Assembly: GCA_027031025.1 (NCBI GenBank)
Contig: JALVEJ010000033.1
Coordinates: 1 to 43,638, forward strand
Origin: Flavobacteriales bacterium
GTDB lineage: Bacteria > Bacteroidota > Bacteroidia > Flavobacteriales > Flavobacteriaceae
DNA length: 43,638 nt
Reading direction: 5' to 3'
The number at the start of each line of letters is the position of its first letter. The stretch's first letter is position 1. Positions 9,192-43,638 of the stretch are shown in pieces. The notes under the pieces are model-generated. The model was not told the origin of the DNA. It did no database searches and saw only the letters and a list, made by a program, of their open reading frames with translations. Made by a program: the position numbers and the translations under genes.

Positions 9192-9214
9192 ACGCGTTTT
9201 AGTAAACCGATTTG

Positions 9215-9256
9215 AAAAACCTTGGAGTTCTGACTCTGAGGTTTTTTTGTTTTTTA
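9215..9256 (+). terminator. rpsU intrinsic terminator
   Basis: AAAAACC...GGTTTTT stem enclosing GAGT-TCTG-ACTC, followed by TTTTTTTGTTTTTT. Confidence 0.7.
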
Positions 9257-9298
9257 TCACTTTATTTTTTTATCTTTGATAGACCAAGCGCCTCTAAA

Positions 9299-20783: not shown

Positions 20784-21891
20784 ATGATAACACAAGAACA
20801 ACTCAAAGATTTGGAAAGACGTTTAACCGCTTTAAACCACTATCTTTGACATCGATAAGAAACGCATTGAAATAGAAAACGAAGAAGAAAAAACCGGCAA
20901 TCCCGATTTTTGGAACGACCCCAAAGAGGCGCAAAAAGTGATGAAGTCCATTCAATCGAAAAAAAAATGGATTTCCGATTACCAAGAAGCCAAAGAAAAC
21001 TTTGAAGAATTACAGATTTTATACGATTTTTATAAAGAAAAGGAAGCCACTGAAGAAGAGGTTGTCAAACAATATGAACAAACCAAAACCTTGATAGAAA
21101 ATATTGAGTTTAGAAACATGCTATCGGGCGAAGCCGACCAACTCAGCGCCGTTTTGCAAATCACAGCCGGTGCCGGTGGTACCGAAAGCAACGATTGGGC
21201 TGAAATGCTCCTGCGCATGTATTTGATGTGGGCACAAAAAAACGGCTTCAAAACCAAAGAACTCAACTACCAAGCCGGCGATGTCGCCGGTGTTAAAACC
21301 GTGACTATTGAAATAGAAGGCGACTTTGCCTATGGCTACTTAAAAGGCGAAAACGGCGTGCACCGGTTGGTCAGAATCTCTCCTTTTGACAGCAATGCCA
21401 AACGGCACACCTCTTTTGCATCGGTTTATGTTTATCCTTTGGTTGATGACAGCATTGAAATTAATATCAATCCTGCAGATATCAAATGGGAAACCATGCG
21501 TGCCAGCGGGGCAGGCGGGCAGGCCGTCAACAAACTGGAAACAGCTGTCCGGTTGCGTCACGAACCTTCGGGAATTATTATTGAAAATTCGGAAACACGC
21601 TCGCAACTCGAAAACAAAGAAAAAGCTATGAAACTGCTCAAATCGCGCTTATATGAAATTGAAATGCAAAAACGCATGGAAGAGCGTAATAAAATTGAAG
21701 CCAATAAAAAGAAAATAGAATGGGGCTCACAAATCCGGAATTATGTGATGCATCCTTACAAATTGGTCAAAGATGTGCGAACCGGACATGAAACATCACA
21801 AGTAGATAACGTTATGAATGGCGAAATAGACGACTTTTTAAAAGCTTATCTGATGATGACCGGACAAAAAACGGAAGATGGAACTAATTAA
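20784..21891 (+). CDS. prfB: peptide chain release factor 2, requires programmed +1 frameshift (join 20784..20846, 20848..21891)
   Basis: Frame 0 is MITQEQLKDLERRLTALNHYL, ending at CTT TGA C (20844..20850). The +1 frame continues DIDKKRIEIENEEEKTGNPDFWNDP in phase with the listed ORF at 20938. SPF (RISPFDS) and GGQ (SGAGGQAVNK) motifs are present. Confidence 0.92.
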
Positions 21892-24162: not shown

Positions 24163-24174
24163 TTTTTAATAAAG

Positions 24175-24245
24175 AGGCACCTAGCAGATTCGAACTGCTG
24201 TAAACGGTTTTGCAGACCGCTGCCTAGCCACTCGGCCAAGGTGCC
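24175..24245 (-). tRNA. tRNA-Cys (anticodon GCA)
   Basis: The reverse complement is GGCACCTTGGCCGAGTGGCTAGGCAGCGGTCTGCAAAACCGTTTACAGCAGTTCGAATCTGCTAGGTGCCT. Acceptor GGCACCT/AGGTGCC, anticodon loop CT-GCA-AA, T-arm AGCAG-TTCGAAT-CTGCT, discriminator T. Confidence 0.9.
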
Positions 24246-30200: not shown

Positions 30201-31660
30201 GATTTTTTTTCATTGTCACGAATACAAAGCAAAACATCTTGCGCATCGGCATCGGATTGTTCAATATAATAAGTATTATTGGTAGCGACGACTTTGATGC
30301 CGTATTTTTCAGAAAATTTTAAAAGCACTTCATTGACGTGTTCTTCTTCTTCCAAACCATGCCGGTTCAATTCGAGGTAATAATCATTGCCAAAGATTTT
30401 ATGCCACCATTGCAAAGCTTCCTCGGCTTGCTTGTCGCCCATGGTAAGGATTTTTTGAGCAATTTCACCTGAAAGAGACCCGCTTAAAACAATAAGCCCG
30501 TCTTTATATTTTTCTACCCAATCGCGCCCGATACGCGGCACATAATAAAACCCCTCGGTATGTGCTATTGATGTAAGTTTGACTAAATGTTGATAAGCTT
30601 GTTTGTTTTTGGCAATAAAAACCGTTGGGTACCCATTGTCTTTCTTGGTTTTGTCGGTATGGTCATCTACCACATTGAGTTCTACACCAACCAAAGCTTT
30701 AAGTTGGTCTTGTGGGGCTTTATCTTTATTATATTTTTCAACGGCTGACACAAAATGAAAAGCGCCCATTAAATTATTAATATCGGTTATGGCGACTCCG
30801 GGCATTTTGTATTCTCCGGCTTTTTGTACCAATTCTTGAATTTTGGTTGTAGATTGTAGCACCGAATACTGGGAATGATTGTGTAAGTGTGAGAAACTGA
30901 CATCAGTTAAAGAAACTTTTTTGGTTTCCGAAGTTTTTTTCTCTGTTTTTTTAACTTTTTGCTTTAATTGAGCGCTTTTTTTCTTAAAACTCTCGTGTTT
31001 TAAGCCGATTAGTTGAATAGTATCCGGATTTTCTTTTCTAAATTTTTCAAGATAATTCTTATCAGTTTCCAATTCTTCCGCTGTAAAATGATCTTTTCGC
31101 AACAGTTCAAAAAACACGCGGGCTGTGGCTTCCACATCAGCCGTAGCATTATGTGCCTCAACAAAATCGACCCCAAACAAATGACGATACAATTCGCCTA
31201 AACGTGGCATTTTGAATTTACCGTTTTTGCCACCTGGCAACTGACATAAGGCGGCTGTTCTTTCGGTCATGGTATCCAAAACTTTCTTTTTGAGCAAAGT
31301 TGTTGGAATATTTTTGCGGTAAAATTCTGCCCCGGTTACTTTTCTGTCAAATTCGATATTGTGTCCGACTACAAATTTGGCTTTTTCCAAAGCTTGGTTA
31401 AACCGGTTTAAGACATCTTGCAAATCATGTCCCTCAGTCATTGCCAATTCGGTAGAAATACCGTGAATTTGTTCGGCTTCAAAAGGAACATTAAAACCTT
31501 CGGGTTTAATCAAAAAATCTTGTTGTTCAATTAATTGCCCCATGTCGTCGTGCAATTGCCAAGCTATTTGAATCACACGAGGCCAATTGTCAGTCTTGCT
31601 AACCGGCGCATTGAAGTCTTTGGGGAGTCCGGTGGTTTCGGTGTCGAAAATTAGATACAT
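27248..31660 (-). CDS. dnaE: DNA polymerase III alpha subunit with fused N-terminal DEDDh (epsilon-like) 3'-5' exonuclease domain
   Basis: 1470 aa. Exo motifs: FDTETTG, VGHNIEFD, HNATADVEAT. PHP: FSHLHNHSQYS. Polymerase core: GPGRGSAAGSAVAY, LLKMDFLGIKTL, FNRSHAVSYA. Confidence 0.92.
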   Translation of the reverse strand: MYLIFDTETTGLPKDFNAPVSKTDNWPRVIQIAWQLHDDMGQLIEQQDFLIKPEGFNVPFEAEQIHGISTELAMTEGHDLQDVLNRFNQALEKAKFVVGHNIEFDRKVTGAEFYRKNIPTTLLKKKVLDTMTERTAALCQLPGGKNGKFKMPRLGELYRHLFGVDFVEAHNATADVEATARVFFELLRKDHFTAEELETDKNYLEKFRKENPDTIQLIGLKHESFKKKSAQLKQKVKKTEKKTSETKKVSLTDVSFSHLHNHSQYSVLQSTTKIQELVQKAGEYKMPGVAITDINNLMGAFHFVSAVEKYNKDKAPQDQLKALVGVELNVVDDHTDKTKKDNGYPTVFIAKNKQAYQHLVKLTSIAHTEGFYYVPRIGRDWVEKYKDGLIVLSGSLSGEIAQKILTMGDKQAEEALQWWHKIFGNDYYLELNRHGLEEEEHVNEVLLKFSEKYGIKVVATNNTYYIEQSDADAQDVLLCIRDNEKKSTPIGRGRGFRYGLPNNEYYFKSPEQMKELFHDIPEAIINTQEIVDKVENYPLKRDVLLPKFDIPEEFIDPLDEVDGGKRGENAYLRYLTFEGAKKRWGELTPEIKERLEFELDTIEKTGYPGYFLIVQDIIKQAKKMGVVCGPGRGSAAGSAVAYALGITNVDPIKYNLLFERFLNPERVSLPDIDMDFDDEGRERVIEYVINKYGRERVAQIITYGSMAAKSSIRDAARVMELPLNQADDLAKKAHVSLSLILNKDEEKIKEKAKRPELIKDALSLSEIAQGFDQAAQTVKTAGRIEGSLRNLGLHACGFIIAPTALDEVVPVTTAKGSDMFVTQFDNSVVESAGLLKMDFLGIKTLTIIRDALRIIKQRSGIEIDIDNIPLDDEKTYRLFQRGQTITVFQFESDGMRKYLRDLRPSEFEDLIAMVALYRPGPMEKIPNYIRRKYGQEPVTYDLPEMEEFLKTTYGITIYQEQVMLLSQKLAGFTKGQADTLRKAMGKKNHELLAQMKPLFIEGAVKNGHPREVLEKIWEDWKSFASYAFNRSHAVSYAIVAYQTAYLKANYPSEYMAAVLSHNMKDAKKLSFLMAETRKMGIKVLPPDINESDYLYTVNKEGNIRYGLGGASGVGKAAVDAIIEERKANGPYKTFFDFIKRVNLRAVNKRTIENLVKAGAFDCFEGTHRAQYFQEKDGTNFIEKAIKFGNRYKKNKESMQGSLFGDSEEVQIPEPEIPDCEPWSELQKLEKEKEVAGIYLSGHPLDTLKIQYKYYVQHPISFVNKMLQTLSGDKEENKQEGEEMLESEEEKAEKELEFQKYQQMLGREIVIAGMVTGTRHFETKNGKQKGELTIEDYTDSITLEFWNEDYLENAKYFVPKLFVIVRLKVTRNYYNNRYRVNVLNVGLLTEVFENNPKDLTINLFANMVDTKLVDVLHEHLQKFKGKQKLRINIIDPHDPELSMPLDTRLGVKVYPELVELLEKMKLRFRLN

Positions 31661-31770
31661 AGGAAGGGAATTTTAGGTTAATGGAAGTGTTTTCGCTACA
31701 AAATTATAAAATAAACACTTGTTTTTAAAAAATAGTTATTAACATCTGGTTTTATTGACGAAAAACATAA

Positions 31771-31797
31771 AAAAAGGAAGCCGTTAAGCTTCCTTTC
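31771..31797 (-). terminator. infB intrinsic terminator
   Basis: The minus strand reads AAAGGAAGC-TTAACG-GCTTCCTTT followed by TTTTATG. Confidence 0.7.
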
Positions 31798-31839
31798 TTG
31801 TTTGTTTATTGTGTGTGTGTTTGAGTTAAGTTTGGTCTA

Positions 31840-34575
31840 TTACAATTTTCTTTTAACTTCGTAACTTTGATAGGCTTCAACGACATCTCCAACCTCAATA
31901 TTATTGTAATTTTTAATCATCAACCCGCATTCATAGCCTTTGGATACTTCTTTAACATCATCTTTAAAGCGTTTTAATGAAGCCAATTCGCCATCATAAA
32001 TGACGATACCTTCACGGATTAGTCTAACTTTAGAATGGTTATAAATTTTACCTGATGTTACCATACAACCGGCAACCGTTCCGATCTTGGAAATTTTGAA
32101 AGTTTCACGGACTTCTGCCGTTCCGGTAACTTCTTCTTTGATTTCCGGCGACAACATACCTTCCATTGCTTCTTTAACATCGTTAATCACATCGTAAATA
32201 ATGGAATAGGTTTTGATTTGAACTTGTTCTTGTTCTGCCAACCGGCGGGCTGAGGCAGAAGGTCGCACATTAAATCCGATAATAATGGCATCGGATGCAG
32301 ACGCTAAATTGACATCGGTATCGGAAATTTGTCCAACTGCTTTATGAATAATATTAACATTGACATTTTCGGTGGATAATTTTTGTAAAGAATCTGACAA
32401 GGCTTCAACAGAACCATCCACATCTCCTTTGATTATCAAGTTGAGTTCTTTAAAATCGCCTAAGGCAATCCGACGCCCAATTTCATCCAAAGTAATGTGT
32501 TTTTGGGCGCGCAATTGTTGTTCTCTGATAATTTGGTCGCGTTTTTGGGCAATTCGTTTGGCTTCTCTTTCATCTTGATAAACTTTGAATCGGTCGCCGG
32601 CTGTCGGTGCGCCGTCTAAACCGAGCACTCGCACCGGTGTAGAAGGTTCGGCTGCTTTGACACGATTGTCGCGCTCGTCATACATAGCTTTAACCTTGCC
32701 GTGGTATTTTCCGGCTAAAACATAATCACCGACTTTAAGTGTGCCGTTTTGCACTAACATATCGGCTACATAGCCACGTCCTTTGTCGAGCGCAGCTTCT
32801 AAAACCGTACCGACAGCCGGTCTGTTAGGATTGGCTTTCAGGTCGAGCATTTCGGCTTCTAAGACTATTTTTTCTAACAATTCATCAACCCCTTGACCGG
32901 TTTTGGCCGAAATTTCTTGAGATTGATATTTTCCGCCCCAATCTTCGACCAATAGGTTCATATTTGCCAATTGTTGTTTGATATTGTCGGGGTTGGCAGC
33001 CGGACGGTCAATTTTATTAATGGCAAAAATCATAGGGACACCGGCAGCTTGAGCATGACTGATGGCCTCTTTTGTTTGAGGCATTATATTGTCGTCAGCA
33101 GCTATCACAATAACCGCCACATCGGTTACTTTGGTTCCGCGTGCCCGCATAGCGGTAAAGGCCTCGTGTCCGGGTGTATCAATAAAGGTGAGTTTTTCGC
33201 CGTTATCCAATTCAACTTTGTAGGCACCAATATGTTGGGTAATACCGCCTGATTCTCCGGCAACCACATTGGATTTTCTGATATAATCCAATAACGAGGT
33301 TTTTCCGTGATCGACGTGTCCCATGATGGTTACAATAGGTGGTCGTTTAACCAAATCTTCTTCGGCGTCTTCTTGTTCAGTATCTTCCAGCTCTTCTTCG
33401 GCATCGATAAATTTGACGTCATAATTGAATTCATCGGCAACCAAACTCAATGTTTCTGCATCGAGGCGTTGGTTCATGGTAACCATGAGTCCTAAATTAA
33501 AGCAAGCCGTAATGACATCGGTTACCGGGACGTCCATCATATTTGCCAATTCGGATACCGTGATAAACTCGGTTACTTTGAGTATTCTGCTTTCTTCATC
33601 TTGTTTGAGCTGATCGGCAAGGGCTTGTTCTTTGCGTTTTTGACGAACTTCACGTTTGATTTTAGAGCGTTTACTTTTGCCGCGCCCTTGCAATCGTTCA
33701 AGGGTTTCTTTTATTTGTTTTTGGATTTCTTCTTCGGTTATTTCTTTTTTCTCAGCCGGTTTTTTATAACCGCCTTTTTTTGATTTCTGGTCTTTTTGGA
33801 AACCTTGATTTTTAGCAGATGCCGAAATACGTTTACGTTTACGCTTGCGTTTTTTCTTTTCTTCGGTCGCACCGGTTTCTTTTTTCTTAGGTTTTTTTTC
33901 AAACTGACTAAGGTCAATTTTCTCACCGGTAGTTTTAATGCCTTGCAGTTTTTGATATTTGGTTGTTATTTCTTCCGGTTCTTTATTTTCTTTATCAATA
34001 GCCTCAGCCTGTTTTTCTTGAACTTGTTCCGGTTCTTTCGTTTGGGTTGTGGCTTTGGGAATCTTTTTGGTTTCCGGTTTTTTAGGCGTTTTTTCCGCAG
34101 CTTTTTTCTGTAGACTTGTGTCTTGATTTTTTTCTTCTTTTTCGGGATGTGCCGGTTCAACTGCTTCTTTGTTTTCCGGTTGTGCAAGTGGTTGTTCTGT
34201 TTCTACGGATTTAGTTGTTGAAGTGGATTTTTTATCACTCAATGCTTCGACTTTTCCGACAATTTTAGGGCCGGTTAACTTGACCCTTCCGGTAATAACT
34301 TCTTCTTTTTGTTGCGTTACCGTTTCTTCCTTCTCTTTCTCTTTGCGCAATTCGGCTTTGGCTTCTTCTTGTTCTTTTTTGATAGATGCCGATTGATCTT
34401 TGACATTTTTGTCAGACTGAAATTCTTGTTGTAATAAATTGTAAGCTTCTTCTGAAATTTTGGCACGTGGACTCGGCCGTTTTATCTCGATTTCTTTTTT
34501 TTGTAAAAAATCGATAACGGTTTGGAGTCCAACATTAAACTCAAGCATTACCTCTCTTATGGTTTTATTTGCCAT
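31840..34575 (-). CDS. infB: translation initiation factor IF-2
   Basis: 911 aa. G domain: [24 protein letters not shown]. Long K/E-rich N-terminal region. It lies downstream of nusA. Confidence 0.95.
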
Positions 34576-34626
34576 ATATTCTTTTATTAGTTTTTATATC
34601 TGTTTTTTTGAAAAAGAAAAAGCCAT

Positions 34627-35904
34627 TTATTTTTTAAACTCTTCTTTTAAAATTCTAAATACTTCATAAATGGTTTCTTCTTCCAAATCGGTGCGTCTTA
34701 CCAAATCATCGACATCATTGGCTAAAATGCTTTTGGCAGAATCCAGACCGATTTTTTTAAATTCTTGGATTACCCAATCATCAATTTCATCGGCAAATTC
34801 GTCTAAATCAACATCTTCTTCGTCTTGTTCTCGTTGTATTTCTATTTCGTATCCGGTGATATCGCTTGCCAAACGGATATTCTGTCCGCGTTTGCCGATG
34901 GCTTTTGATATTTCATCGGGTTTCATATAAACATAAGCGGTTTTTTGTCCTTTGGCATTTTCACCCAGTTCCAAACGTTGTATTTGCACCGGTCCTAAGG
35001 CACGTTGGATAAACAATTTATCGTTATCGGTATAATTGATTACATCGATATTTTCATTGCCCAATTCGCGCACAATACCATGAATTCGGGAGCCTCTAAC
35101 GCCCACGCAAGCGCCTACGGGATCAATGCGGTCGTCATAAGTATCGACGGCGACTTTGGCTTTTTCGCCGGGGATACGTGCAATGCGTTTGACCGTAATC
35201 AAGCCGTCGAATACTTCCGGTATTTCTTGTTCAAACAATTTTTCTAAGAATCGGTTATCGGTTCTAGACATAATAACAACCGGCTTGTTGCCTTTCATCT
35301 CGACCTTTTCTATAATACCTTTGACATTATCGCCTTTACGAAAACGGTCGGAAGGAATTTGCCGGTCACGCGGCAATATCAATTCGTTGCCTTCGTCGTC
35401 AATCAAATATACGGCATTGGGGCGCACATGATGCACTTCGGCGGTATAAAGTTCGCCTTCTCTGTCTTTAAAAAATTTATGTAAATTGATAAAATCATAC
35501 TCGGTTAAACGATTTTCAAGATTTTGTTTTAAGGCAATAATGGCGCGCCTTCCGAGATTGACTAATTGGAAAGGTTCGTCCAGTTCATCACCGACTTCAA
35601 CATCGGGGTCAATTTTTTTGGCATCGGACAAATGAATTTCTTGGTATTCATTAATCGGATATTTGTCATCCGGCACGACGGTTCGGTATATCCAAATATC
35701 CAAATCGCCCCGGTCGGGGTTGATGATGATATCAAAATTATCTTCATCGGGCTCACTACCGTCACGTTTCTTTTTAATAATACCGTTTCTTTTACGCAAA
35801 GCATGTGCAATGACATCTTTTAGAATAGCCAATATAGTGGCTTTATCGATATTTTTTTCGTCTTTAAATTCCAGAAAGGCTTCAACCAATTCTTTGTTAT
35901 TCAT
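34627..35904 (-). CDS. nusA: transcription termination/antitermination factor NusA
   Basis: 425 aa. S1 domain (GDNVKGIIEKVE) and KH domains (DPVGACVGVRGSRI, AIGKRGQNIRLAS). Conserved rimP-nusA-infB order. Confidence 0.95.
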   Translation of the reverse strand: MNNKELVEAFLEFKDEKNIDKATILAILKDVIAHALRKRNGIIKKKRDGSEPDEDNFDIIINPDRGDLDIWIYRTVVPDDKYPINEYQEIHLSDAKKIDPDVEVGDELDEPFQLVNLGRRAIIALKQNLENRLTEYDFINLHKFFKDREGELYTAEVHHVRPNAVYLIDDEGNELILPRDRQIPSDRFRKGDNVKGIIEKVEMKGNKPVVIMSRTDNRFLEKLFEQEIPEVFDGLITVKRIARIPGEKAKVAVDTYDDRIDPVGACVGVRGSRIHGIVRELGNENIDVINYTDNDKLFIQRALGPVQIQRLELGENAKGQKTAYVYMKPDEISKAIGKRGQNIRLASDITGYEIEIQREQDEEDVDLDEFADEIDDWVIQEFKKIGLDSAKSILANDVDDLVRRTDLEEETIYEVFRILKEEFKK

Positions 35905-35921
35905 AACTCCTTATTATTTTT

Positions 35922-36386
35922 TTAAAATTTTAAGACCACTTTTGCTTCTTTTATGTCGTCAAAAGGGATAGTATTTTGTTTGACCACCGTTACTTTTCCT
36001 TTTCCTATTTTTTTAGGTTCTCTTACTTTGTTTTCCAACACAATTTGATTGTCATCTACATGAACCAAAACCCCTTCCACTTCTCCTGTTGTGGTTTTAA
36101 CTTTAACCGGGCGGCTTATGTTTTTTTGAAATTGCCGTTTCAGATGAAATGGTTTGGTAATATCAACAGATGACACAGTCAATGCAAAGTCTTCGGCTTC
36201 ACGATCCAAATTGTGTTCAATATGACGACTCAAATGGACGATATCGTCAATTGTTACGCCTTGGTCTCCGTCGATAATTACGTTTATGTTATTGTTTTCC
36301 GAGACTTTTACATCCAATAGAAACAAATCCGGACGTTCTTGTAATCCTGATTTTAATAATTTTTTAACTTTTTCTATCAAGCTCAT
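35922..36386 (-). CDS. rimP: ribosome maturation factor RimP
   Basis: 154 aa, immediately upstream of nusA. The pattern LFLLDVKV...INVIIDGDQGVTIDD fits RimP. Confidence 0.85.
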   Translation of the reverse strand: MSLIEKVKKLLKSGLQERPDLFLLDVKVSENNNINVIIDGDQGVTIDDIVHLSRHIEHNLDREAEDFALTVSSVDITKPFHLKRQFQKNISRPVKVKTTTGEVEGVLVHVDDNQIVLENKVREPKKIGKGKVTVVKQNTIPFDDIKEAKVVLKF

Positions 36387-36408
36387 GTTGATTTTTTGTA
36401 TAAAAATA

Positions 36409-36460
36409 GGGGACTACAAGTCCCCATACCACTCTTCTCCATAAATTCGTTGCAAAGATA
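36409..36460 (-). promoter_or_regulatory. rimP-nusA-infB promoter -7 box plus leader terminator-like hairpin
   Basis: Minus-strand TATCTTTG at 36460..36453. About 30 nt downstream is GGGGACU-UGU-AGUCCCC (36425..36409), followed by UAUUUUUAU, 22 nt before the rimP ATG. Confidence 0.5.
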
Positions 36461-36535
36461 CAATTTTTTTTTAAACTCATATCATTTCGTATATTAAAAA
36501 AATTTTGTATTTTTAGAACATAAAAAATAAATGTT

Positions 36536-37375
36536 ATGAAAAAAATACTCGTTCCGGTCGATTTTTCTCAAAAATCAGAAGAAGCTCTTAAAGTTGCTGC
36601 CAAAATAGCCCGAAAAATAGATGGTGAAATATATGTTTTACACCTCTTGGATATCCCTTCGGGTGAAGTGGATATGATTGACGGACACCAAGTTCCCAAA
36701 GGTCCTATGGCTATGATGTTGTTTGAAACTACCCATGAAAAGTTTGATGAGTTTCTAGATAAAGATTACTTGGATGACATTCCGGTTTATGAAAAAGTAA
36801 TGACCGATGCCCCGGTTGAAGGGATTTCTGAATTTGCACAAAAAAACGATATTGATTTTATAGTAATGGGCTCACACGGCACCAGTGGATTGGAAGAATT
36901 TTTTGTCGGTTCCAATACCGAAAAAGTGGTCAGAACGTCTAAAATTCCGGTTTTGGTCATCAAAAAACCTGCTGAAGAATTCAAAGTAGACAAAGTGGTC
37001 ATAGCCGGTAAGTTTTTGGGTAAAAATATGAAGGAGTTTAGAAAAATTATGGAATTTTTTAAAATTTTCAACCCCGAAATTTATTTGCTTAGAGTCAATA
37101 CTATTTCCAACTTCAAATCTACCAAAGAGCTGGAAGAAGTCTTTGATAATTTTTTAAAGAAAGTTCCTGAGTATACTGATTTAAAGCCGGTTATTTATGA
37201 TGACTACACGGTTCAAGAAGGTATTTTTAATTTTGCCGAGAAAATTAATGCCGATATTATTGCTTTGGCAACTCGCGGCAGACAAGGTATTATGCATTTT
37301 TTAACGGATAGTATTGCCGAAAATGTGGTAAACGCTGCTAAACGGAATATTTTGACTATCAAGGTTGAGAAATAG
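36536..37375 (+). CDS. universal stress protein, tandem UspA domains
   Basis: 279 aa. Two Usp modules: MKKILVPVDFS...IVMGSHGTSGLEEFFVGSNTEKVVRTSKIPVLVI, and a second ending ALATRGRQGIMHFLTDSIAENVV. Confidence 0.8.
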   Translation: MKKILVPVDFSQKSEEALKVAAKIARKIDGEIYVLHLLDIPSGEVDMIDGHQVPKGPMAMMLFETTHEKFDEFLDKDYLDDIPVYEKVMTDAPVEGISEFAQKNDIDFIVMGSHGTSGLEEFFVGSNTEKVVRTSKIPVLVIKKPAEEFKVDKVVIAGKFLGKNMKEFRKIMEFFKIFNPEIYLLRVNTISNFKSTKELEEVFDNFLKKVPEYTDLKPVIYDDYTVQEGIFNFAEKINADIIALATRGRQGIMHFLTDSIAENVVNAAKRNILTIKVEK

Positions 37376-37382
37376 ATTGTTT

Positions 37383-37700
37383 TTTTGAGGAATTGAGGAT
37401 TTTCCCTGCTTCATAGTTTATTTGTCACTTTTGATGATTGCTTATAGCTTCATACTATATTACTGCTTCTAATTTGAGGAAGTGAGGATTTTTTCGCTGC
37501 TTCATAGAAGGCTTTGCGCTTTGATGATTGCTTGTTGCTTCAAACAATGTTTCTGCTTACGATTTGAGGAATTGATGAAATGATGAAATGATGAGTTGAG
37601 GAAATGAGGATTATAACTGCTTCATAAATTGTTATGGTCTTTGATATTTTTTCACTACTTCTGATGTTACTTCTGCTTACAATTTGAGGAAGTGAGGAAT
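37383..37700 (+). repeat. tandem array, about 3.5 units of the ~90-bp TTTGAGGAAnTGAGGATT family
   Basis: TTTGAGGA occurs at 37383, 37472, 37562 and 37683 (periods 89, 90, 121; the long unit has an internal GATGAAAT duplication). Shared blocks: CTGCTTCATA, TTTGATGATTGCTT, GCTTCA, CTGCTT. Confidence 0.8.
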
Positions 37701-37709
37701 TGAAAAGTA

Positions 37710-37763
37710 GGTCGCTGAGTGTTCCGTCACGACAAAAGACGTAACGGAATGTGCCGAAGCGCC
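37710..37763 (+). repeat. hairpin-module repeat
   Basis: GG(T)CGC-TGAGTG-TTCCGTCACG-ACAAAAGA-CGTAACGGAA-TGTGCCGAA-GCGCC. Confidence 0.65.
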
Positions 37764-37920
37764 GGTTTTCAATTGCAAATTTTATTAAAAACAACTTTTT
37801 ACTCTCCATTACTTCTAAAATCGGCGTTCGTCACTTCGACAGGCTCAACACAAGTGTTCTATATTCGTCATTCAAGTTTTCAATATTTTGTTGTGTTTTT
37901 TAGTATAAAGCAGCCGGTTA

Positions 37921-37940
37921 TTTTTAGCTTTTACCACACG
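37921..37940. repeat. left arm of a 20-bp perfect inverted repeat bracketing the toxin locus
   Basis: TTTTTAGCTTTTACCACACG is the exact reverse complement of 43429..43448. Imperfect extension GGTT(A/TC) lies outside both arms. GGTAGCGGG at 37955..37963 is mirrored by CCCGCTACC at 43381..43389. Confidence 0.8.
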
Positions 37941-37951
37941 AAAGAATTTGT

Positions 37952-40543
37952 GTGGTAGCGGGCGAACGCCTGCATACCGATAAAGACATGGGACACGACG
38001 GCTATAATGGTGACCGTGTAGCCGGTGATGCTTTCGGATTTTCTTTATCCTATTTTTCAAATACTACAGGACAACCCTACGACGACTATAAAGCCCGTAA
38101 AGCCGATGAAAGTATTAATTTAGGACTAACTCATAATAGTACTATTTACAATTACAACAGAAACCTGTTTAACGGCAATATTAAGACTATGGTAACCGCT
38201 TTGCGCGATACTAAAAGTAAGCCTATTGATATTGCGCTTAACAACTATACTTACGACCAGCTTAACCGTATTCGAAATATGGAGTCGCATATATTAGAAC
38301 CATCTACTTTGGCTCCGCAATACAATGACTTGATACAAACCTCGTACAATTATGACCGTAATGGAAACTTAAAAAAGTTAAATCGTAATGCCATTATTGG
38401 TGGTACTGTGCAACATATGGACGCACTGACTTATCATTATAATATGACAGGCTCCCCTTCAAGGTTAGAAAACAACCAATTGCTATGGGTTGATGATGCT
38501 GTACCTGCCACCGTAACCAATGTAGATGTTGATGATCAAGATAAAGGCAACTATACTTACGATGCCATAGGACAACTTACCAAAGACGAAGCCGAAGGAC
38601 TAAAAAGCATAGAATGGACGGTTACCGGCAAAGTCAAGAAAATAATTAAAGTAAAAAATGAGGTTACAGAAGAAATCAGCTTTACCTATGATCCTTTAGG
38701 CAATAGGTTAAGCAAGAGCGTTAAAAATAAAAAAGGAACGACTACGACTTACTATATCCGTGATGCGCAAGGCAATCCGTTAGCGGTCTATCAATGCACA
38801 AAAGAAAACAATGAAATAGCCTCATTCTATCTGCAAGAAAATGATATATACGGCAGCAAACGACTGGGTATCCATCATTATGATTCTAAAACCGGCAATA
38901 TGCTGGTCTCTCGTCCTGCTACTGATGTATATGCCAACACCATAGGCGACAAGCAATACGAACTGAGTAACCATTTGGGCAATGTGCTCAGTGTGATTAC
39001 CGACCAAAAATTACTTAACATCCAACGCGGCACACCGGTATTTGAAGCCCGTTTTGATGAGGATGATGAGATAATGCCGTTTAGCCCAACTCCGGACATA
39101 ACCAAAGTAGCCAACACCGGACATGTTTTATTAGTAGAAAACACACCGGGCATACCGGAACAAGGCGCTTATACAACCATAAGTTTACAATCCGGCAAAA
39201 AATATTTGTTAAACTTTGACATGCCGCTTAACGAACTCGAAGGCACGTTTGAAGTAATCATTTTGGATAATACTTCGAATGATGCAGTTATAAAAGAGCT
39301 TATAGAACAAAAACAAACCGGACACCTAAGTTACACGTTTACAGCCCCAACCACCGGTGGTTACACCCTATCATTCTTAACCTACGAAAAAGCCCAAGGC
39401 ACATTTAGCCTCGACAACATAGAAATTTTAGACATAACCGGATTAAACCCCGCCGAAGTAGCCGCACATTCGCAAGAAATGCCTATCTTTGTACCAAGCG
39501 TTCTTTCATTTAGTGATTATTATCCTTTTGGTATGTTGATGCCGGGTAGGCATGCAAGTAGTAGTTTTTATAGGTATGGATTTGGTGGGCAAGAGAAAGA
39601 TGATGAGATTAAGGGAAAAGGTAATCATATTGCATATGCCGAAAGAGGATATGACCCAAGAGTAGCAAGATGGATAAGCGTTGATGTCTATGCACCGGCA
39701 TTAGCCTCATTTTCACCTTATAATTATGCCTTAAATAATCCCATTTGTCTTGTTGATGAAGAAGGAAATTGGCCTAAACCTTCAAGTTTATTGCCGGATG
39801 ACACTTCACCTTTGATAAAAGGCTTGGTTGATGGAGTATGGGAAGGCTTAACAGGTTCAGTAGGATTTGCTTGGGATTATGCAACTGATTCAAAATTCAG
39901 GGAACAAGTAAACGCTTCTTTCAAAGCATTAATAAATGATCCGTTAGGAACACTTCAAGGTATTGTAGATGAATATGCAGATTTAATAAACAGGACTTTA
40001 TCAGGAGATGCTTCTGATGAAGATATTTATAGAATTGGTGAGGAAATAGGTGAAAATGGCATTGGTTTGCTACTTGGTGGTTCAACTTTGGTTGCCAAAG
40101 GTGTCAAAAAATTTAGCAAACTTAAAATTGCGAAAGGTAGGTTTGTTAAAAAAATTATTAAAGAAACAGAAAAAATGCCTGCTTGGGTTAAAGCAGGTAA
40201 AGACTTTGAGATTGATTTAATGAATAAGTTTGTTAATAAGGGTTATAAGGTAGTTACACAAGTCTCATTTGCAGCAATAGATCCAAAAACTGGAAAAAAA
40301 ATTAGAGCAGTTGTTGATGGTATTGTTATAAAAAATGGAAAAATCTTAGGTTTCGTTGAAGCAAAATTAACCAAAGGAAAAACCCAATTAACAAGAAATC
40401 AAAAAATTGTTTATGAAGCTTTAAGGAAAGGAGAAGCGGTAGCAGTTGGCAGTAAAGCAAAAAAAGTAGAAGAAATAACAAAAGGTGCTATTAAAGTTGG
40501 AGAAAAAGTCAAAGCAAATGTACATATTTTATATAAACAATAA
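37952..40543 (+). CDS. Rhs/YD-repeat protein fragment (N-terminally truncated) with RHS core end and C-terminal toxin domain
   Basis: 863 aa from a GTG; the frame opens only at 37928, after TAG at 37925..37927. YD repeats: YNYDRNGNL, YTYDAIGQLT, FTYDPLGNRL. Core end: DYYPFGMLMPGR, YGFGGQEKDDE, RGYDPRVARWISVD, SPYNYALNNPICLVDEEGNWP. A 255-aa variable tip follows. Confidence 0.8.
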   Translation: MVAGERLHTDKDMGHDGYNGDRVAGDAFGFSLSYFSNTTGQPYDDYKARKADESINLGLTHNSTIYNYNRNLFNGNIKTMVTALRDTKSKPIDIALNNYTYDQLNRIRNMESHILEPSTLAPQYNDLIQTSYNYDRNGNLKKLNRNAIIGGTVQHMDALTYHYNMTGSPSRLENNQLLWVDDAVPATVTNVDVDDQDKGNYTYDAIGQLTKDEAEGLKSIEWTVTGKVKKIIKVKNEVTEEISFTYDPLGNRLSKSVKNKKGTTTTYYIRDAQGNPLAVYQCTKENNEIASFYLQENDIYGSKRLGIHHYDSKTGNMLVSRPATDVYANTIGDKQYELSNHLGNVLSVITDQKLLNIQRGTPVFEARFDEDDEIMPFSPTPDITKVANTGHVLLVENTPGIPEQGAYTTISLQSGKKYLLNFDMPLNELEGTFEVIILDNTSNDAVIKELIEQKQTGHLSYTFTAPTTGGYTLSFLTYEKAQGTFSLDNIEILDITGLNPAEVAAHSQEMPIFVPSVLSFSDYYPFGMLMPGRHASSSFYRYGFGGQEKDDEIKGKGNHIAYAERGYDPRVARWISVDVYAPALASFSPYNYALNNPICLVDEEGNWPKPSSLLPDDTSPLIKGLVDGVWEGLTGSVGFAWDYATDSKFREQVNASFKALINDPLGTLQGIVDEYADLINRTLSGDASDEDIYRIGEEIGENGIGLLLGGSTLVAKGVKKFSKLKIAKGRFVKKIIKETEKMPAWVKAGKDFEIDLMNKFVNKGYKVVTQVSFAAIDPKTGKKIRAVVDGIVIKNGKILGFVEAKLTKGKTQLTRNQKIVYEALRKGEAVAVGSKAKKVEEITKGAIKVGEKVKANVHILYKQ
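39211..39357 (+). repeat. rhs-internal segment duplicated at 43492..43638
   Basis: 39241..39357 is identical to 43522..43638 (117/117). 39230..39240 has 2 mismatches. Homology decays upstream to about 39211. Confidence 0.9.
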
Positions 40544-40548
40544 TAATT

Positions 40549-41175
40549 ATGGAAAGAAAAGAATTGTTTTTCAGTTTGCTAAACAAGGAGTTGTCAAAGG
40601 ATGGATTTAAATTTGTTAAAAGTAAAAAAATATTTAGGAAGAAAGAAAATGGCAATGATTTTTTTATTGAATATGAAACTTGGCCATATTTTTTTGCAAT
40701 CAAAACCCATTATTATATTTTTTTAAAAGAAGTAGAAAAAATAAAAAAAAAGGCATGGGGCGAGATATATCAAAGATATTATACATTAGGAGACACTAAA
40801 CAAGATATAGAAAAAACAGACACCGAAAAAAAGGTAATCGAAGTTGCTAAAAAAGAGATAAAATTTTATCATTCTTTTTTAAAAGATTATTTCAAAAAAA
40901 ACTCTAACTATGAGCATATAGATAAAACTCTTAACGAAATTCCCGGAAAGAATTTACACTTGAGTTTTAATGAAATTTTAACTAGCTATTTAGCTATTAT
41001 TGTTGCAAAACTTACAAATAATCCAAAAATTGAAGAATTATTTGTTTTTTATAGAAATGTAATAATAAGTTTAAAAAATGAAAAACTTTTTTCAAAAACA
41101 CAGGAAGAATATATAGATGAAAGTATTGTTAAGTATGATTTATTAGTTGATTATTTAAGAAAAATGAAAAAATGA
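40549..41175 (+). CDS. putative cognate immunity protein (DUF4304-like N-terminal pattern)
   Basis: 208 aa. It starts 5 nt after the toxin stop, on the same strand. N-terminus: ELFFSLLNKELSKDGFKFVKSKKIFRKKENGNDFFIEYE. No signal peptide. Confidence 0.55.
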   Translation: MERKELFFSLLNKELSKDGFKFVKSKKIFRKKENGNDFFIEYETWPYFFAIKTHYYIFLKEVEKIKKKAWGEIYQRYYTLGDTKQDIEKTDTEKKVIEVAKKEIKFYHSFLKDYFKKNSNYEHIDKTLNEIPGKNLHLSFNEILTSYLAIIVAKLTNNPKIEELFVFYRNVIISLKNEKLFSKTQEEYIDESIVKYDLLVDYLRKMKK

Positions 41176-41245
41176 AAAAAGTAAGAGAAAATTTTATTAT
41201 TATTAAAGATCCAAGTATTAGTCCTCAAAAATAATATGACTAACT

Positions 41246-42016
41246 ATGAAAAACGTATATAGAATAAAATTGGCATGTTTAAAAAAGATTAATAATGAGA
41301 CTATTAAACTATTTTTCGATTATTTAAAAACATTTGAAGGAGGAAAGTATTTTCCTGCAAAATGCGATGTATATGAACCTGTGAAAACTGTTTTACATCC
41401 TAATGACTATAACAAACAAGTGAATTGGCTTTTACAACCAGCAAGTTCTTTGATATGTAAAACCAAAGATGGTGTTTTTTTAGGAATAATTGAAAATAAA
41501 ACAAAAGCAGAAATTTTTGTTATTCAAAATGGAAAAAAAACGCCCTTTGGGAATCAGGAAGAAAATATATTTAAAACTGAAATTACAATATGGATAAAAA
41601 GTAATGATTATAACCATTTAGCTATTTTTATTAAAGAATTATATGAACGATTAGAATGTGATTATGGTTTTTTAACATTGGAAGATGACTATTTAAATCA
41701 GAACTTTATCAGAAAAGTTATTCATAATGACATAACAATTGAAGAATTTGTTGGCGATAATTTAAATGATTTTATACCCGGAATTTATTGGTTAAATTTT
41801 TTTGGAAATTTACCAATGTTTCATCATATTCATAAAATTAACCTTAATGATTTTTATACTGAAAAATTAAAAAATAATTCATTGCTTGTAAAAGTTTTTG
41901 AACATCCGTCGGACTATAACAAAAGATATGCATTTATTAATACTAAGAAACTAAGAAGTTTAATTGGTGAAAAATATATATTTGATAAATCAGATATAAT
42001 TGAAAAGGAATTCTAA
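41246..42016 (+). CDS. second immunity-like protein (orphan)
   Basis: 256 aa, cytoplasmic and very A/T-rich. The C-terminal segment IPGIYWLNFFGN recalls immunity families of polymorphic toxin loci; this is from memory and unverified. Confidence 0.4.
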   Translation: MKNVYRIKLACLKKINNETIKLFFDYLKTFEGGKYFPAKCDVYEPVKTVLHPNDYNKQVNWLLQPASSLICKTKDGVFLGIIENKTKAEIFVIQNGKKTPFGNQEENIFKTEITIWIKSNDYNHLAIFIKELYERLECDYGFLTLEDDYLNQNFIRKVIHNDITIEEFVGDNLNDFIPGIYWLNFFGNLPMFHHIHKINLNDFYTEKLKNNSLLVKVFEHPSDYNKRYAFINTKKLRSLIGEKYIFDKSDIIEKEF

Positions 42017-42025
42017 AAACGTTAT

Positions 42026-42087
42026 TTAAAAAAAATGAATAAAACTTTATTAATTTTATTTTTGGGAATTTTTACCATAACCAATGC
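42026..42087 (+). repeat. duplicated 5' end (ribosome-binding region plus signal peptide) of the 42953 gene
   Basis: 42048..42087 is identical to 42966..43005 (40/40: TATTAATTTTATTTTTGGGAATTTTTACCATAACCAATGC). The upstream AAAAAAAATGAA is also shared. Confidence 0.85.
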
Positions 42088-42089
42088 AC

Positions 42090-42424
42090 GGATATGATGT
42101 AGTTTACAAAAGAATTGATGCAGATGGAAATGTATACATAGGTCAAGCTAAAAGCAAAGAAAGATTTATAAAAAGAATGAAGGAACACGACAAGAAGTTT
42201 TCCGATACTGATTGATTTTGAATTTGAGATTTTAGATATAGCAGAACCTGGAATAGAAATTAGATGTATTAGAAGAAAGTCATATAAGAAAAACAGGTAT
42301 TCCAACCACAAAAAAGACAGCAAAGAATGGAACAGGAACAATTAAAAATAAAAGATACCAAATGAATGATAAGAGATATAGAGAAAATGGAGGAACTGTA
42401 AATAAACAAAAAGGATCATATTAA
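42090..42424 (+). pseudogene. degraded GIY-YIG (URI-type) nuclease toxin tip, two frameshifts
   Basis: Three frames read in series. First GYDVVYKRIDADGNVYIGQAKSKERFIKRMKEHDKKFSDTD* (42090..42215). Then IDFEFEILDIAEPGIE (from 42211). Then KLDVLEESHIRKTGIPTTKKTAKNGTGTIKNKRYQMNDKRY...* (42257..42424). The YIG, R, H and E positions fit a GIY-YIG fold. Confidence 0.5.
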
Positions 42425-42436
42425 TTATAATATATT

Positions 42437-42910
42437 ATGAAAAAAATAAAAAAAGGAGATGTTTTTGTGTTCAAGTATAATGATAGAAAGTTTGTTGTTG
42501 GTCAAATTATCAGAAAAATGGAACATCATATTGTTGTGATTATCTTTAAAGATTTGATTGACAAAAACAAATTGAATGATATTAATATAGATAAACTTAC
42601 ACCTATTTTGATAGCGAATACATTTGAAAGTAAATTGGAAAAAGGTGACTGGGTTATAGTTTCTAATAAAAGTGTTAAAAATAAATTTGAAAAAAGTAGA
42701 TATTATAAAGTTGGGATGAATGGTAGAAAAACTTTATTAATAAATGAAAAAAATGAAATAATAAGAGAATTAAAAAAGGATGAAGAGGATAATTATTGTT
42801 ATGAGAAATATGTTTCACCTGTTAGATTAGAAAAAGCGATTAGAGCATTTATTGATAAAGATGCATGGAAAGAGAGTTATAATTGTCTACTAATCTCTAA
42901 ATATTATTAA
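42437..42910 (+). CDS. immunity protein, Imm26-like by N-terminal pattern
   Basis: 157 aa. It starts 12 nt after the degraded toxin tip. N-terminus: KKIKKGDVFVFKYNDRKFVVGQIIRK. Confidence 0.5.
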   Translation: MKKIKKGDVFVFKYNDRKFVVGQIIRKMEHHIVVIIFKDLIDKNKLNDINIDKLTPILIANTFESKLEKGDWVIVSNKSVKNKFEKSRYYKVGMNGRKTLLINEKNEIIRELKKDEEDNYCYEKYVSPVRLEKAIRAFIDKDAWKESYNCLLISKYY

Positions 42911-42943
42911 TATTCAGATTGTGAATGCAATTTTAAAATTTAT

Positions 42944-43005
42944 ATAAAAAAAATGAAGCAAGCACTATTAATTTTATTTTTGGGAATTTTTACCATAACC
43001 AATGC
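42944..43005 (+). repeat. partner of the 42026..42087 duplication
   Basis: See 42026..42087. Confidence 0.85.
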
Positions 43006-43378
43006 CCAAAATAGAGAGTCACAAGTTGTAGATGAATTAATAGCGGTTACAAAAGTAAAAGAATCTTTACCGCTTATGGTTAATTCTATAATAGACAGAT
43101 TTAAGCAGAAAAGCACTAATATTCCTGATACATATTGGGAAGAAATAAAAAATAGCATAGACTATTTTACTTTTTTAGAGAAGGTTAAAAAACTTTATAT
43201 CGAAAATTACAACTTAGCAGAACTAAAAGAATTGGTATCGCTTTATAAATCGGGAAATATAGAATCTTATAAGCTAAAATTAGAAAAGATAACACCACAA
43301 CTTTATCAAATAGGAAAAGAATTTGGACAACAAACAGCTCAATTTATTGTAGAGAAAATTAAAGCCTATAAAAAATAA
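42953..43378 (+). CDS. secreted DUF2059-like protein
   Basis: 141 aa. Signal peptide MKQALLILFLGIFTITNAQ. The helical body has a YNLAELKELVSLYKS segment reminiscent of DUF2059. Confidence 0.55.
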   Translation: MKQALLILFLGIFTITNAQNRESQVVDELIAVTKVKESLPLMVNSIIDRFKQKSTNIPDTYWEEIKNSIDYFTFLEKVKKLYIENYNLAELKELVSLYKSGNIESYKLKLEKITPQLYQIGKEFGQQTAQFIVEKIKAYKK

Positions 43379-43384
43379 GCCCCG

Positions 43385-43411
43385 CTACCGCCAGCTTGTA
43401 GCTGGTGGTAG
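43385..43411 (+). terminator. hairpin after the DUF2059-like gene
   Basis: CTACCGCCAGC-TTGTA-GCTGGTGGTAG (one G-U pair) followed by TTTAATCTT. Confidence 0.55.
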
Positions 43412-43428
43412 TTTAATCTTAAAAAAAT

Positions 43429-43448
43429 CGTGTGGTAAAAGCTAAAAA
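43429..43448. repeat. right arm of the 20-bp perfect inverted repeat
   Basis: CGTGTGGTAAAAGCTAAAAA is the reverse complement of 37921..37940. Confidence 0.8.
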
Positions 43449-43454
43449 GAAACC

Positions 43455-43484
43455 AAAAAGCCACTTGTTTTTAGTGGCTTTTTT
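43455..43484. terminator. strong intrinsic terminator
   Basis: AAAAAGCCACT-TGTTTTT-AGTGGCTTTTT followed by a further T, then GG. Confidence 0.75.
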
Positions 43485-43490
43485 GGCTTT

Positions 43491-43638
43491 AAAACTTTGC
43501 AATAACATCCAACGAACTAAAAGGCACGTTTGAAGTAATCATTTTGGATAATACTTCGAATGATGCAGTTATAAAAGAGCTTATAGAACAAAAACAAACC
43601 GGACACCTAAGTTACACGTTTACAGCCCCAACCACCGG
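43491..43638 (+). pseudogene. start-less orphan rhs fragment (partial, continues beyond the window)
   Basis: The frame opens after TAA at 43488..43490 and reads NFAITSNELKGTFEVIILDNTSNDAVIKELIEQKQTGHLSYTFTAPTTG. This matches residues of the 37952 gene encoded at 39214..39357. No ATG/GTG/TTG start lies in frame. Confidence 0.6.

Follow-up and report, generated by a model that had tools for sequence, protein, structure and literature searches.

The 43,638-nt stretch of DNA analyzed here (the window: positions 1–43,638, forward strand, of contig JALVEJ010000033.1 in the Flavobacteriales bacterium assembly GCA_027031025.1) ends, from position 37,921 onward, in a run of Rhs toxin fragments and small genes that is probably a detached, partly decaying orphan array, serving mainly as a polyimmunity island and potentially also as a donor of toxin tips. 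The proposed scenario is that the array consists of chromosomal orphan rhs C-terminal (rhs-CT) cassettes of what its Rhs relatives indicate to be an uncultured Flavobacteriales-type bacterium, and that these cassettes would descend from a giant secreted Rhs toxin with a signal peptide, a DUF6443 domain and YD repeats, and would have lost the head of the delivery gene. The tip of the first cassette (toxin 1) is preceded by no signal peptide and no DUF6443 domain, and about 85% of the shell is missing, so that, judging from the architecture of the family, this tip is presumably not exportable from the locus. Given that no exportable tip is evident and that the small genes are intact, the array would chiefly be a polyimmunity island, with the products of the small genes (the 208-aa, Imm26, 256-aa and 141-aa proteins; aa, amino acids) conferring protection from toxins delivered by relatives in which the weapon is still in place. 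As a second role, intact tips might be copied by homologous recombination, via a shared tract of about 370 nt and conserved spacers, into a full-length rhs gene, if one exists; two toxin tips are intact open reading frames (ORFs) with this tract, and a reservoir role therefore stays conceivable. The original prediction, made from the sequence alone, had offered these two explanations, a silent toxin-tip reservoir or an immunity island retained after the loss of the delivery part; both can still hold and are not mutually exclusive, with the evidence leaning toward the island. Contigs numbered L001 and up are comparison loci from other assemblies or genomes, and aa positions refer to the 863-aa rhs ORF.

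Truncation of the first rhs gene

The array opens with an rhs ORF that consists of the following parts:

37952–40543, plus strand: 5'-truncated rhs ORF, 863 aa, with matches to RHS_repeat and TIGR03696
aa 5–354, plus strand: remnant of the YD-repeat shell within the rhs ORF
39014–39487 (aa 355–512), plus strand: inserted domain of about 155 aa, after the last YD repeats and before the Rhs core
39518–39766 (aa 523–605), plus strand: Rhs core, with the LVDEEGN motif at aa 600
39767–40129 (aa 606–726), plus strand: conserved pre-toxin linker
40130–40540 (aa 727–863), plus strand: C-terminal toxin domain, PD-(D/E)xK-nuclease-like, of a rare family

The identity of this ORF as a truncated rhs core, as originally predicted, is supported by two hidden Markov model matches, a marginal one to Pfam RHS_repeat (E 1.3e-4, 22.7 bits against a cut-off of 22) and a clear one to the NCBIfam core model TIGR03696 (Rhs_assc_core; aa 523–605, E 9.4e-12, 45.3 bits against a cut-off of 32.5); the concern that such scans might find no RHS core is thus settled. 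The core ends in NPICLVDEEGN (aa ~596–606), a variant of the PxxxxDPxGL-type motif, after which the sequences of the cassettes are unrelated. The 1170 Rhs homologues of the ORF, mostly from Bacteroidota, share 30–60% identity over aa 2–354. When a 3620-aa relative was aligned to the window, the rhs-like sequence was confined to 37955–39835, apart from the copy at 43492–43638 that belongs to the second cassette, and an in-frame stop codon is located upstream of the ORF at 37925–37927.

Judged by comparison with 80 related loci from GTDB species genomes, a set from which the window's own species is absent, the first rhs ORF is truncated. In these loci, 2290–2900 residues lie upstream of the equivalent point. 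The full-length relatives from Flavobacteriia are 3514–4109 aa long, with N-termini that read as signal peptides, and the DUF6443 domain was found in both relatives that were scanned. The ORF in the window aligns only to residues 2779–3362 of the 3620-aa relative, that is, the pre-toxin part that was kept corresponds to the last ~580 of ~3400 residues; a stretch that is conserved in the relatives just before the first rhs residue of the window, HGPLAR..G..KVQG.DYAYTLQGWLKG, is missing. In the place of a full-length rhs gene, the array is preceded by usp, rimP, nusA, infB and dnaE, in the window as well as in a second assembly (L092), where the same order, dnaE-infB-nusA-rimP-usp-hairpin-rhs, is found; usp and the rimP-nusA-infB genes are the neighbors named originally. 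Among the 80 loci, no full-length rhs gene shares this synteny with usp or rimP. The assertion that no N-terminal delivery region is present also holds: the ORF has no upstream shell, and no match to PAAR, VgrG or components of type VI or type IX secretion systems was detected in the window, in which a few ORFs lack a Pfam match.

Many homologues of about 700 aa start near the same point as the ORF in the window, which prompted us to consider a functional, stand-alone class of short Rhs proteins. This class was rejected: the start offsets are continuous, from -26 to +973 aa, the full-length relatives run on upstream through the strongly conserved motif, and the short copies in L035 are located downstream of longer ones, in the canonical order of a main rhs gene followed by progressively shorter orphans.

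Two regions of the ORF merit separate mention. The insertion of about 155 aa is absent from most homologues and shows only weak family matches (CBM_4_9_1 and choice-of-anchor C, E ~0.05); the homology with cassette 2 begins inside it. The linker (aa 606–726) precedes other nuclease domains in related tips, namely, WHH/colicin-DNase, Endonuclease_NS_2 and AHH-like ones, and may be an entry or translocation module.

The junction between usp and rhs

The window contig comes from a metagenome assembly, with the same sequence at NCBI and JGI; its lineage is represented in ENA ERZ27262687, in SRR33151393 and SRR33151384, and in JGI Ga0256831, Ga0256832 and Ga0256846. Moreover, the original prediction had raised the possibility that the assembly was broken or misjoined at 37.9 kb. 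The junction is genuine: it is reproduced in L092 (ENA ERZ27262687, contig k141_14076, 39.6 kb), which is 99.75% identical to positions 27952–39519 of the window. Outside the shared core tract, the two differ at six positions over 11.5 kb and are therefore presumably not one sequence deposited twice. We thus consider it barely credible that the hairpin repeat at the junction caused a false join and that the real gene continues upstream. The junction does coincide with a repeated 47-nt element, in a sequence that was assembled from a metagenome; yet, apart from the second assembly, an in-frame stop and unrelated sequence are found directly upstream of it, and an assembly word of 141 nt, which we take the k141 prefix to denote, would span a 47-nt repeat.

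Both assemblies run without a break through 37964–39210 and are interrupted only where the shared core tract starts. This stretch, therefore, appears to be single-copy; accordingly, a near-identical main core elsewhere in the genome is unlikely, and a diverged one is possible. In a collection of 5.8 billion clusters, no protein other than that encoded at this locus was more than 60% identical to aa 1–340.

Retained immunity genes and a decayed toxin

Downstream of toxin 1, the first cassette contains the following genes and gene remnants:

40549–41175, plus strand: 208-aa gene, predicted cognate immunity gene of toxin 1, by conserved synteny
41246–42016, plus strand: 256-aa gene, candidate orphan immunity gene by position only, with no toxin partner
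42017–42087, plus strand: duplicated 5' end of a paralogue of the 141-aa gene (start codon and signal peptide MNKTLLILFLGIFTITNA), fused to the toxin remnant; direct repeat
42088–42424, plus strand: pseudogenised toxin tip, GIY-YIG/Tox-URI1-like, with a cut 5' end and two frameshifts
42437–42910, plus strand: intact Imm26-family immunity gene, 157 aa, Pfam PF15428
42953–43378, plus strand: 141-aa gene with a signal-peptide-like N-terminus, MKQALLILFLGIFTITNAQ; recurrent array member

The toxin remnant directly upstream of the Imm26 gene carries insertions of 4 nt and 1 nt and lacks its 5' part, both in the window and in L003; an allele from another sample (L002), 98.2% identical at the nucleotide level, is free of both insertions and encodes an intact protein of 130 aa. 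The downstream gene, which had been called Imm26-like, matches PF15428 (E 9.3e-8, 32.8 bits against a cut-off of 23.3), and contigs from three other data sets encode an identical protein. Because the remnant is frameshifted in the window and intact in L002, beside an identical Imm26, the toxin ahead of Imm26 decayed here and its immunity gene was kept.

Of the earlier description of this remnant as a degraded GIY-YIG tip, the degradation stands, and the family label is weak. The only Pfam match of the intact L002 allele is to GIY-YIG (PF01541; E 0.027, 15.2 bits, below the cut-off of 22.6, profile positions 2–72 of 78), with the Y...YIG...R motifs visible; the remnant in the window itself gives no GIY-YIG match, and a homologue search with the reconstructed remnant returned nothing. 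Tox-URI1, with its URI fold, is presumably equivalent to GIY-YIG. In PMC3482391, Imm26 appears as a partner of Tox-URI1, a toxin with the URI nuclease fold.

The other two small genes have no toxin partners, and searches for family and structure assignments of their products yielded nothing significant. The 256-aa protein has no match in Pfam, NCBIfam or the Protein Data Bank (PDB) and no relatives, is 100% identical in L001, and is not conserved beside the toxin 1 homologue in L094; the ORF at 41246–42016 is present as described originally, with the immunity role attributed to it by position. The 141-aa protein has the signal-peptide-like N-terminus that was noted, and the DUF2059 label falls, the match being only at E 0.09. 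In L061, a gene for a homologue with 52% identity immediately precedes an orphan rhs fragment, and we regard this gene as a candidate for a periplasmic immunity protein, by position only. Positions 42017–42087 are a direct repeat (89% identity) of 42935–43005.

The four intact small genes are the most A/T-rich part of the array, with a G+C content of 23–27%, compared with 29% in the toxin remnant, 30% in the toxin 1 tip, 39–43% in the rhs shell and 37% in the rest of the window, in line with the observation that the cassette genes are richer in A/T than their flanks.

Toxin 1 and its 208-aa partner

The toxin 1 domain is rare: a search of 1.84 billion representatives yielded 13 relatives, all of them C-terminal; one of these follows a PT-HINT domain, and another is part of a 5260-aa protein. 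Across the 14 sequences, E27, D63, E77, K79 and Q91 are invariant, forming an E...D...E-x-K...Q signature. The AlphaFold2 model is confident, with a pLDDT of 90.9, and its top PDB matches in a Foldseek search are mostly to PD-(D/E)xK nucleases, albeit weak (E >= 4e-3, template modelling score <= 0.4). Pfam yields just HSDR_N and YqaJ at E ~0.1, and the domain is matched by none of the models in Pfam or NCBIfam, among them whatever Tox-REase models those libraries contain. The nuclease-like character proposed for the tip is, then, supported by the invariant residues and the weak fold matches, which stop short of proof, and a PD-(D/E)xK-like nuclease is a tentative assignment. Toxin 1 resembles the Tox-REase families in its signature, its C-terminal position behind Rhs or PT-HINT and its dedicated downstream immunity gene, but differs in the lack of a model match, in its rarity and in its weak similarity to solved nucleases. 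Tox-REase-3, -7 and -10 are listed in a table of PMC3482391.

The 208-aa gene, earlier described as immunity-like, is by synteny the cognate immunity gene of toxin 1, and the two would constitute a new toxin/immunity pair. Homologues with 61% and 48% identity directly follow toxin 1 homologues in the unrelated contexts of L093 and L094, so that the pair is found together in three contexts. The 208-aa protein has no known family in Pfam or NCBIfam and no significant structural match.

Cassette 2, the shared core tract and the case for a reservoir

The boundary between the two cassettes and the tract that they share comprise the following elements:

43379–43490, plus strand: inter-cassette spacer, 112 nt, with hairpin H1, the 3' half of H2a, a terminator hairpin and a leader
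43384–43412, plus strand: hairpin H1, -22.2 kcal/mol alone
43428–43451, plus strand: 3' half of H2a, which pairs with the left H2a arm
43455–43483, both strands: bidirectional terminator hairpin, from a terminator scan
43491–43638, plus strand: start-less rhs fragment that opens cassette 2 and runs to the end of the window
39211–39579, plus strand: core-coding homology tract of about 370 nt shared with cassette 2, where the assemblies break

The start-less rhs fragment anticipated from position 43491 onward is a copy of the first core: 43492–43638 repeats 39211–39357 at 93% identity. Cassette 2 continues in the ENA contig L001, which is 99% identical to 39538–43638 and extends beyond, into a 454-aa rhs-CT (L001:4099–5463) with YkuD-like (E 6e-4) and SH3_3 (E 2.3e-6) matches in the tip, followed by a gene for a likely lipoprotein of 171 aa (L001:5552–6067). 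Positions 39230–39579 are 90.6% identical to L001:4066–4415, and the tract 39211–39579 is a likely substrate for tip exchange. A comparison of the window with L001 for selection was uninformative: the 34 substitutions are confined to one patch of the core (39547–39751) and a single site at 40532, and none affects the immunity genes.

The terminators that had been noted are evident as terminator-like hairpins at 43384–43412 and 43455–43483; the spacer also contains a conserved leader, GGCTTTAAAACTTTGCAATAAC, and folds as a whole at -40.9 kcal/mol (z about -5). At 88–100% identity, the spacer module follows unrelated cassettes in L085, L086, L088, L090 and L091; the hairpins stand at cassette boundaries, not between individual genes. 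Both L092 and L001 switch cassette variant inside the core tract, the contig ends changing from the cassette 1 to the cassette 2 core variant (L092:11400–11670 and L001:1–300); L092 then enters a third junction, SFSD followed by a stop codon and ...MREDFGMLMPGRH. These switches are either real recombinants or branches of the assembly graph.

These features enter into the case for a working silent-cassette reservoir, which would supply tips through the shared core tract to a full-length DUF6443-Rhs gene elsewhere in the genome. Two intact tips each stand behind the tract of about 370 nt at 90–93% identity, the conserved spacers between unrelated cassettes could act as a second homology arm, contig ends switch variant inside the tract, and, in Salmonella, orphan tips can be activated through recombination (PMC3967940; PMC7043789). 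Nevertheless, we consider such an active reservoir rather unlikely: the unbroken, apparently single-copy stretch 37964–39210 implies that there is no near-identical main core over this length, the search with aa 1–340 retrieved no protein of more than 60% identity beyond this locus, exchange in the cited enterobacterial systems occurs between adjacent, tandem copies rather than distant ones, and one of the tips has already decayed.

The regulatory signals bear on another possibility, namely, that the locus is an internally expressed module resembling a toxin-antitoxin system, in which the Rhs tip is made from an internal start and addiction or growth control stabilizes the locus. In Bacteroidota, promoters contain a -7 box of the TAnnTTTG type. 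Two such boxes, at 40138 and 40225, fall within the sequence that encodes the toxin, before the immunity gene; none was detected upstream of the rhs ORF or in the spacer, and a search for sigma-70 promoters yielded matches only at background level. The intact toxin 1 ORF would be explained by such a module, and the boxes inside the coding region are compatible with it, as is the finding that, in Salmonella, internal promoters drive the expression of Rhs toxins, main as well as orphan, which act like type II toxin-antitoxin modules (PMC7043789). Still, both boxes are positioned past the start region of the toxin itself and better fit a promoter of the immunity gene, no box precedes the ORF or occurs in the spacer, and the GTG start is within a hairpin stem, which together make this explanation highly improbable.

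Several points weigh against the view of the array as chiefly a polyimmunity island. The 863-aa and 454-aa toxin ORFs are uninterrupted in A/T-rich DNA, which points either to a recent detachment or to selection that still acts on the toxins; the immunity roles of the 256-aa and 141-aa genes are candidate ones, by position; the sequence examined is the window, and a distant main rhs gene with active tip exchange may exist; and real recombinants, rather than assembly-graph branching, may underlie the variant switches at the contig ends of L092 and L001.

A hairpin repeat family at the truncation point

The truncation of the first rhs gene coincides with a repeat that is accompanied by a second element on its left:

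37800–37916, no strand assigned: left-flank repeat unit, before the inverted hairpin, between the usp-side mosaic repeat and the array; copy of ~80% identity at L085:170–290
37917–37963, minus strand: inverted hairpin repeat H2a, reverse complement CCCGCTACCACACAAATTCTTTCGTGTGGTAAAAGCTAAAAATAA; the rhs gene is truncated at the outer end of this repeat

This left copy of H2a is complete, in reverse orientation, folds at -18.4 kcal/mol (z -4.0) and ends in ...GTGTGGTAGCGGGC at 37963. The open frame from 37952 that was originally reported is present; however, its GTG start and first four codons (GTG GTA GCG GGC) belong to the hairpin repeat, and the rhs-derived sequence begins at about 37964. Cassette 1 is flanked by a 24-nt inverted repeat (37918–37941 and 43428–43451, with 19 nt exact) because both arms belong to the hairpin family; a chance origin was rejected (0.04 copies expected, 2 found). 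An invertible segment was rejected as well: no contig with flipped junctions was found, and a flip would restore no gene.

A scan of metagenomes for the hairpin motif retrieved seven contigs (L085–L091), in which the elements are located between unrelated rhs-CT/immunity cassettes. Altogether, 15 hairpin copies, all at rhs arrays, fall into three forms: the composite H1 (CCCCGCTACCGCCAGC-TTGT-AGCTGGTGGTAG, an A-rich linker, then TCGTGTGGTAAAAGCTAAAAA), H2a (CCCCGCTGCCGCACGA-ATCCTT-TCGTGTGGTAAAAGCTAAAAATAAC), and H2b, an H2a-type hairpin with a different tail. The inner stems vary among the forms yet remain complementary, with stable folds (z -4 to -5.4). The H2a element is also present in L087, L089, L090 and L091, and H2 copies mark two other rhs breakpoints, in L085 (after ...EGMFEV) and in L090/L091 (before ...LSFLTYEKAQG). 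The left flank together with the hairpin (37800–37963) has a copy of ~80% identity, with a degenerate hairpin, in L085. No copies were found in the other 38 kb of the window or in viral contigs; a phage origin of the hairpins was accordingly rejected.

Since the 5' end of the rhs ORF abuts an inverted hairpin of a kind that also occurs in spacers and at other rhs breakpoints, we infer that, most likely, the gene lost its head, or the array became detached, by a rearrangement at this kind of repeat. The event may have been an adjacent deletion, recombination between repeats or an insertion. In L085 (170–1000), a gene for a YoeB-type toxin and an overlapping upstream small ORF interrupt an rhs core fragment, bordered by an H2b hairpin on one side and the degenerate copy of 37800–37963 on the other, an arrangement that resembles a mobile insertion.

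A more far-reaching proposal, which we consider improbable, holds that H1, H2a and H2b, rather than being passive REP-like terminators, are recombination or transposition signals of a cassette-mobilizing system that created the stand-alone array and whose recombinase, of the Y1 or tyrosine type, works in trans; such a system would cut, invert, insert and delete rhs-CT/immunity cassettes as well as cargo such as the YoeB-type toxin-antitoxin pair. If true, it would represent an integron-like platform, or one resembling miniature inverted-repeat transposable elements, for toxin and immunity genes in Flavobacteriia. A lead for hairpin mobility comes from L096 (5051–5602), where a weak match to Y1_Tnp (PF01797), in a protein named for Tenacibaculum xiamenense, is encoded 0.8 kb downstream of a truncated 1038-aa rhs gene and an immunity gene; we take this gene to be of the IS200/IS605 or REP-associated transposase type.

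The hairpins resemble repetitive extragenic palindromes (REP) and bacterial interspersed mosaic elements (BIME) in being short, G+C-rich, imperfect palindromes of ~30–47 nt just after stop codons, in having variants with differing but complementary inner stems, and in the proximity of rearrangement breakpoints. REP and BIME repeats have many dispersed intergenic copies in a genome and a cognate Y1 transposase; the hairpins described here, in contrast, are so far found only at the rhs arrays of this lineage, among the window and the short metagenome contigs examined.

Recurrence and relation to known systems

A stand-alone array is less of a rarity than the original prediction implied. Truncated rhs arrays with no main gene, beside unrelated genes, are present in at least four other Flavobacteriia genomes:

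L020 (Confluentibacter sediminis): preceded by FG-GAP and MFS genes
L037: preceded by nitronate monooxygenase and M16 peptidase genes
L061: preceded by a 715-aa gene without an assigned family
L095: preceded by RmuC, ribonucleotide reductase and alpha-2-macroglobulin genes

Proteins with the CHU_C type IX secretion signal domain are encoded within a few kb upstream of truncated rhs arrays in two other genomes, adjacent to the array in L004 (2060–15300) and four genes away, on the opposite strand, in L037 (2124–5411).

Orphan-immunity islets with Rhs remnants are described in PMC7400221, PMC3482391 and bioRxiv 10.1101/471110, the latter two of which also cover polyimmunity loci and acquired interbacterial defense (AID) systems. 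Orphan immunity genes are capable of expression (PMC3150448), and a possible reservoir role of orphan modules is discussed in PMC3150448 and PMC3967940. Displaced tips, or silent cassettes, downstream of a main rhs gene are reported by Jackson et al. 2009 (via PMC6421346), Poole et al. 2011 (PMC3150448) and Koskiniemi et al. 2014 (PMC3967940); within Flavobacteriales, 'Ca. Ornithobacterium hominis' has an rhs gene of more than 9 kb with displaced tips (PMC6421346).

The array in the window resembles such orphan rhs-CT/rhsI arrays in its tandem, co-oriented fragments that keep some core-coding sequence, each with a toxin tip of its own and, behind it, an A/T-rich immunity gene, in the absence of start signals from the downstream fragments, and in a shared core tract that permits recombination (90.6–93% over 39211–39579, with PD-(D/E)xK-like as opposed to YkuD/SH3 tips). 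It differs from them in that no full-length gene stands ahead and the first member is itself cut at a hairpin repeat; in the parent family, which is the 3500–4100-aa signal-peptide/DUF6443 Rhs of Flavobacteriia, whereas enterobacterial Rhs are linked to PAAR and VgrG; and in that cassette 1 gathered three extra small genes and one dead toxin.

The likeness to polyimmunity, AID, rAID-1 and SAIDI-1 loci lies in the run of four co-oriented, low-G+C immunity-type genes, including Imm26, in toxins that are absent or degraded, in Rhs remnants and in repetitive non-coding sequence. Unlike the polyimmunity and AID loci, the window has only four to five immunity-type genes and retains two complete toxin tips, and its host is a Flavobacteriales-type bacterium from a metagenome rather than one of the gut Bacteroidales. 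Membership in rAID-1 (bioRxiv 10.1101/471110) was rejected, there being no adjacent XerD-like recombinase, with the nearest integrase-family gene 28 kb away. An integron was rejected, too: the hairpins are at cassette ends, where no search for attC core sites was made, yet no integrase is adjacent and one "cassette" holds six genes.

Other features of the window

The remaining 37 kb of the window encode housekeeping functions (dnaE, infB, nusA, rimP, usp, prfB, H+-PPase and others). The sole integrase-family gene (9212–10186) is separated from the array by housekeeping genes; no known RNA family or tRNA integration site was found at the locus, the only tRNA of the window being at 24174–24245. 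Between usp and the array, a tandem mosaic repeat (37384–37705) consists of three to four copies of a unit of ~90–120 nt with the motifs TTTGAGGAAGTGAGGA, CTGCTTCATA and TTTGATGATTGCTT; it belongs to no Rfam family and has no copy in L085–L091 by blastn. The release-factor ORF at 20938–21891 (PCRF and RF-1 domains) has a GTG start and matches the PCRF profile only from position 29; this is what would be expected of an N-terminal part encoded in a different frame, as with the programmed +1 frameshift known from prfB. The gene for the DNA polymerase III alpha subunit (27248–31660, minus strand) encodes 1470 aa, in which an exonuclease domain of the RNase_T type is fused to the N-terminal side of the PHP/polymerase body.

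Implications

On present evidence, the locus represents an ordinary variant of a phenomenon that is known and fairly common. New here are the truncation exactly at the end of a hairpin repeat, the cognate immunity gene of 208 aa assigned by synteny, and the pseudogene of the Imm26-associated toxin as compared with its intact allele. By-products of the analysis are the rare PD-(D/E)xK-like tip with its 208-aa partner and a lineage-specific hairpin that marks cassette borders and rhs breakpoints. The hairpins at these positions are the one feature that could hide something new; if they are active recombination signals, they would represent a new way of shuffling toxin and immunity genes. More generally, the giant DUF6443-type Rhs of Flavobacteriia appear to share the life cycle of the enterobacterial Rhs, in which tips are displaced, the delivery gene can be lost and immunity outlives the toxin, with one such loss caught in the act, in the form of intact and frameshifted alleles of one toxin tip beside an identical Imm26.

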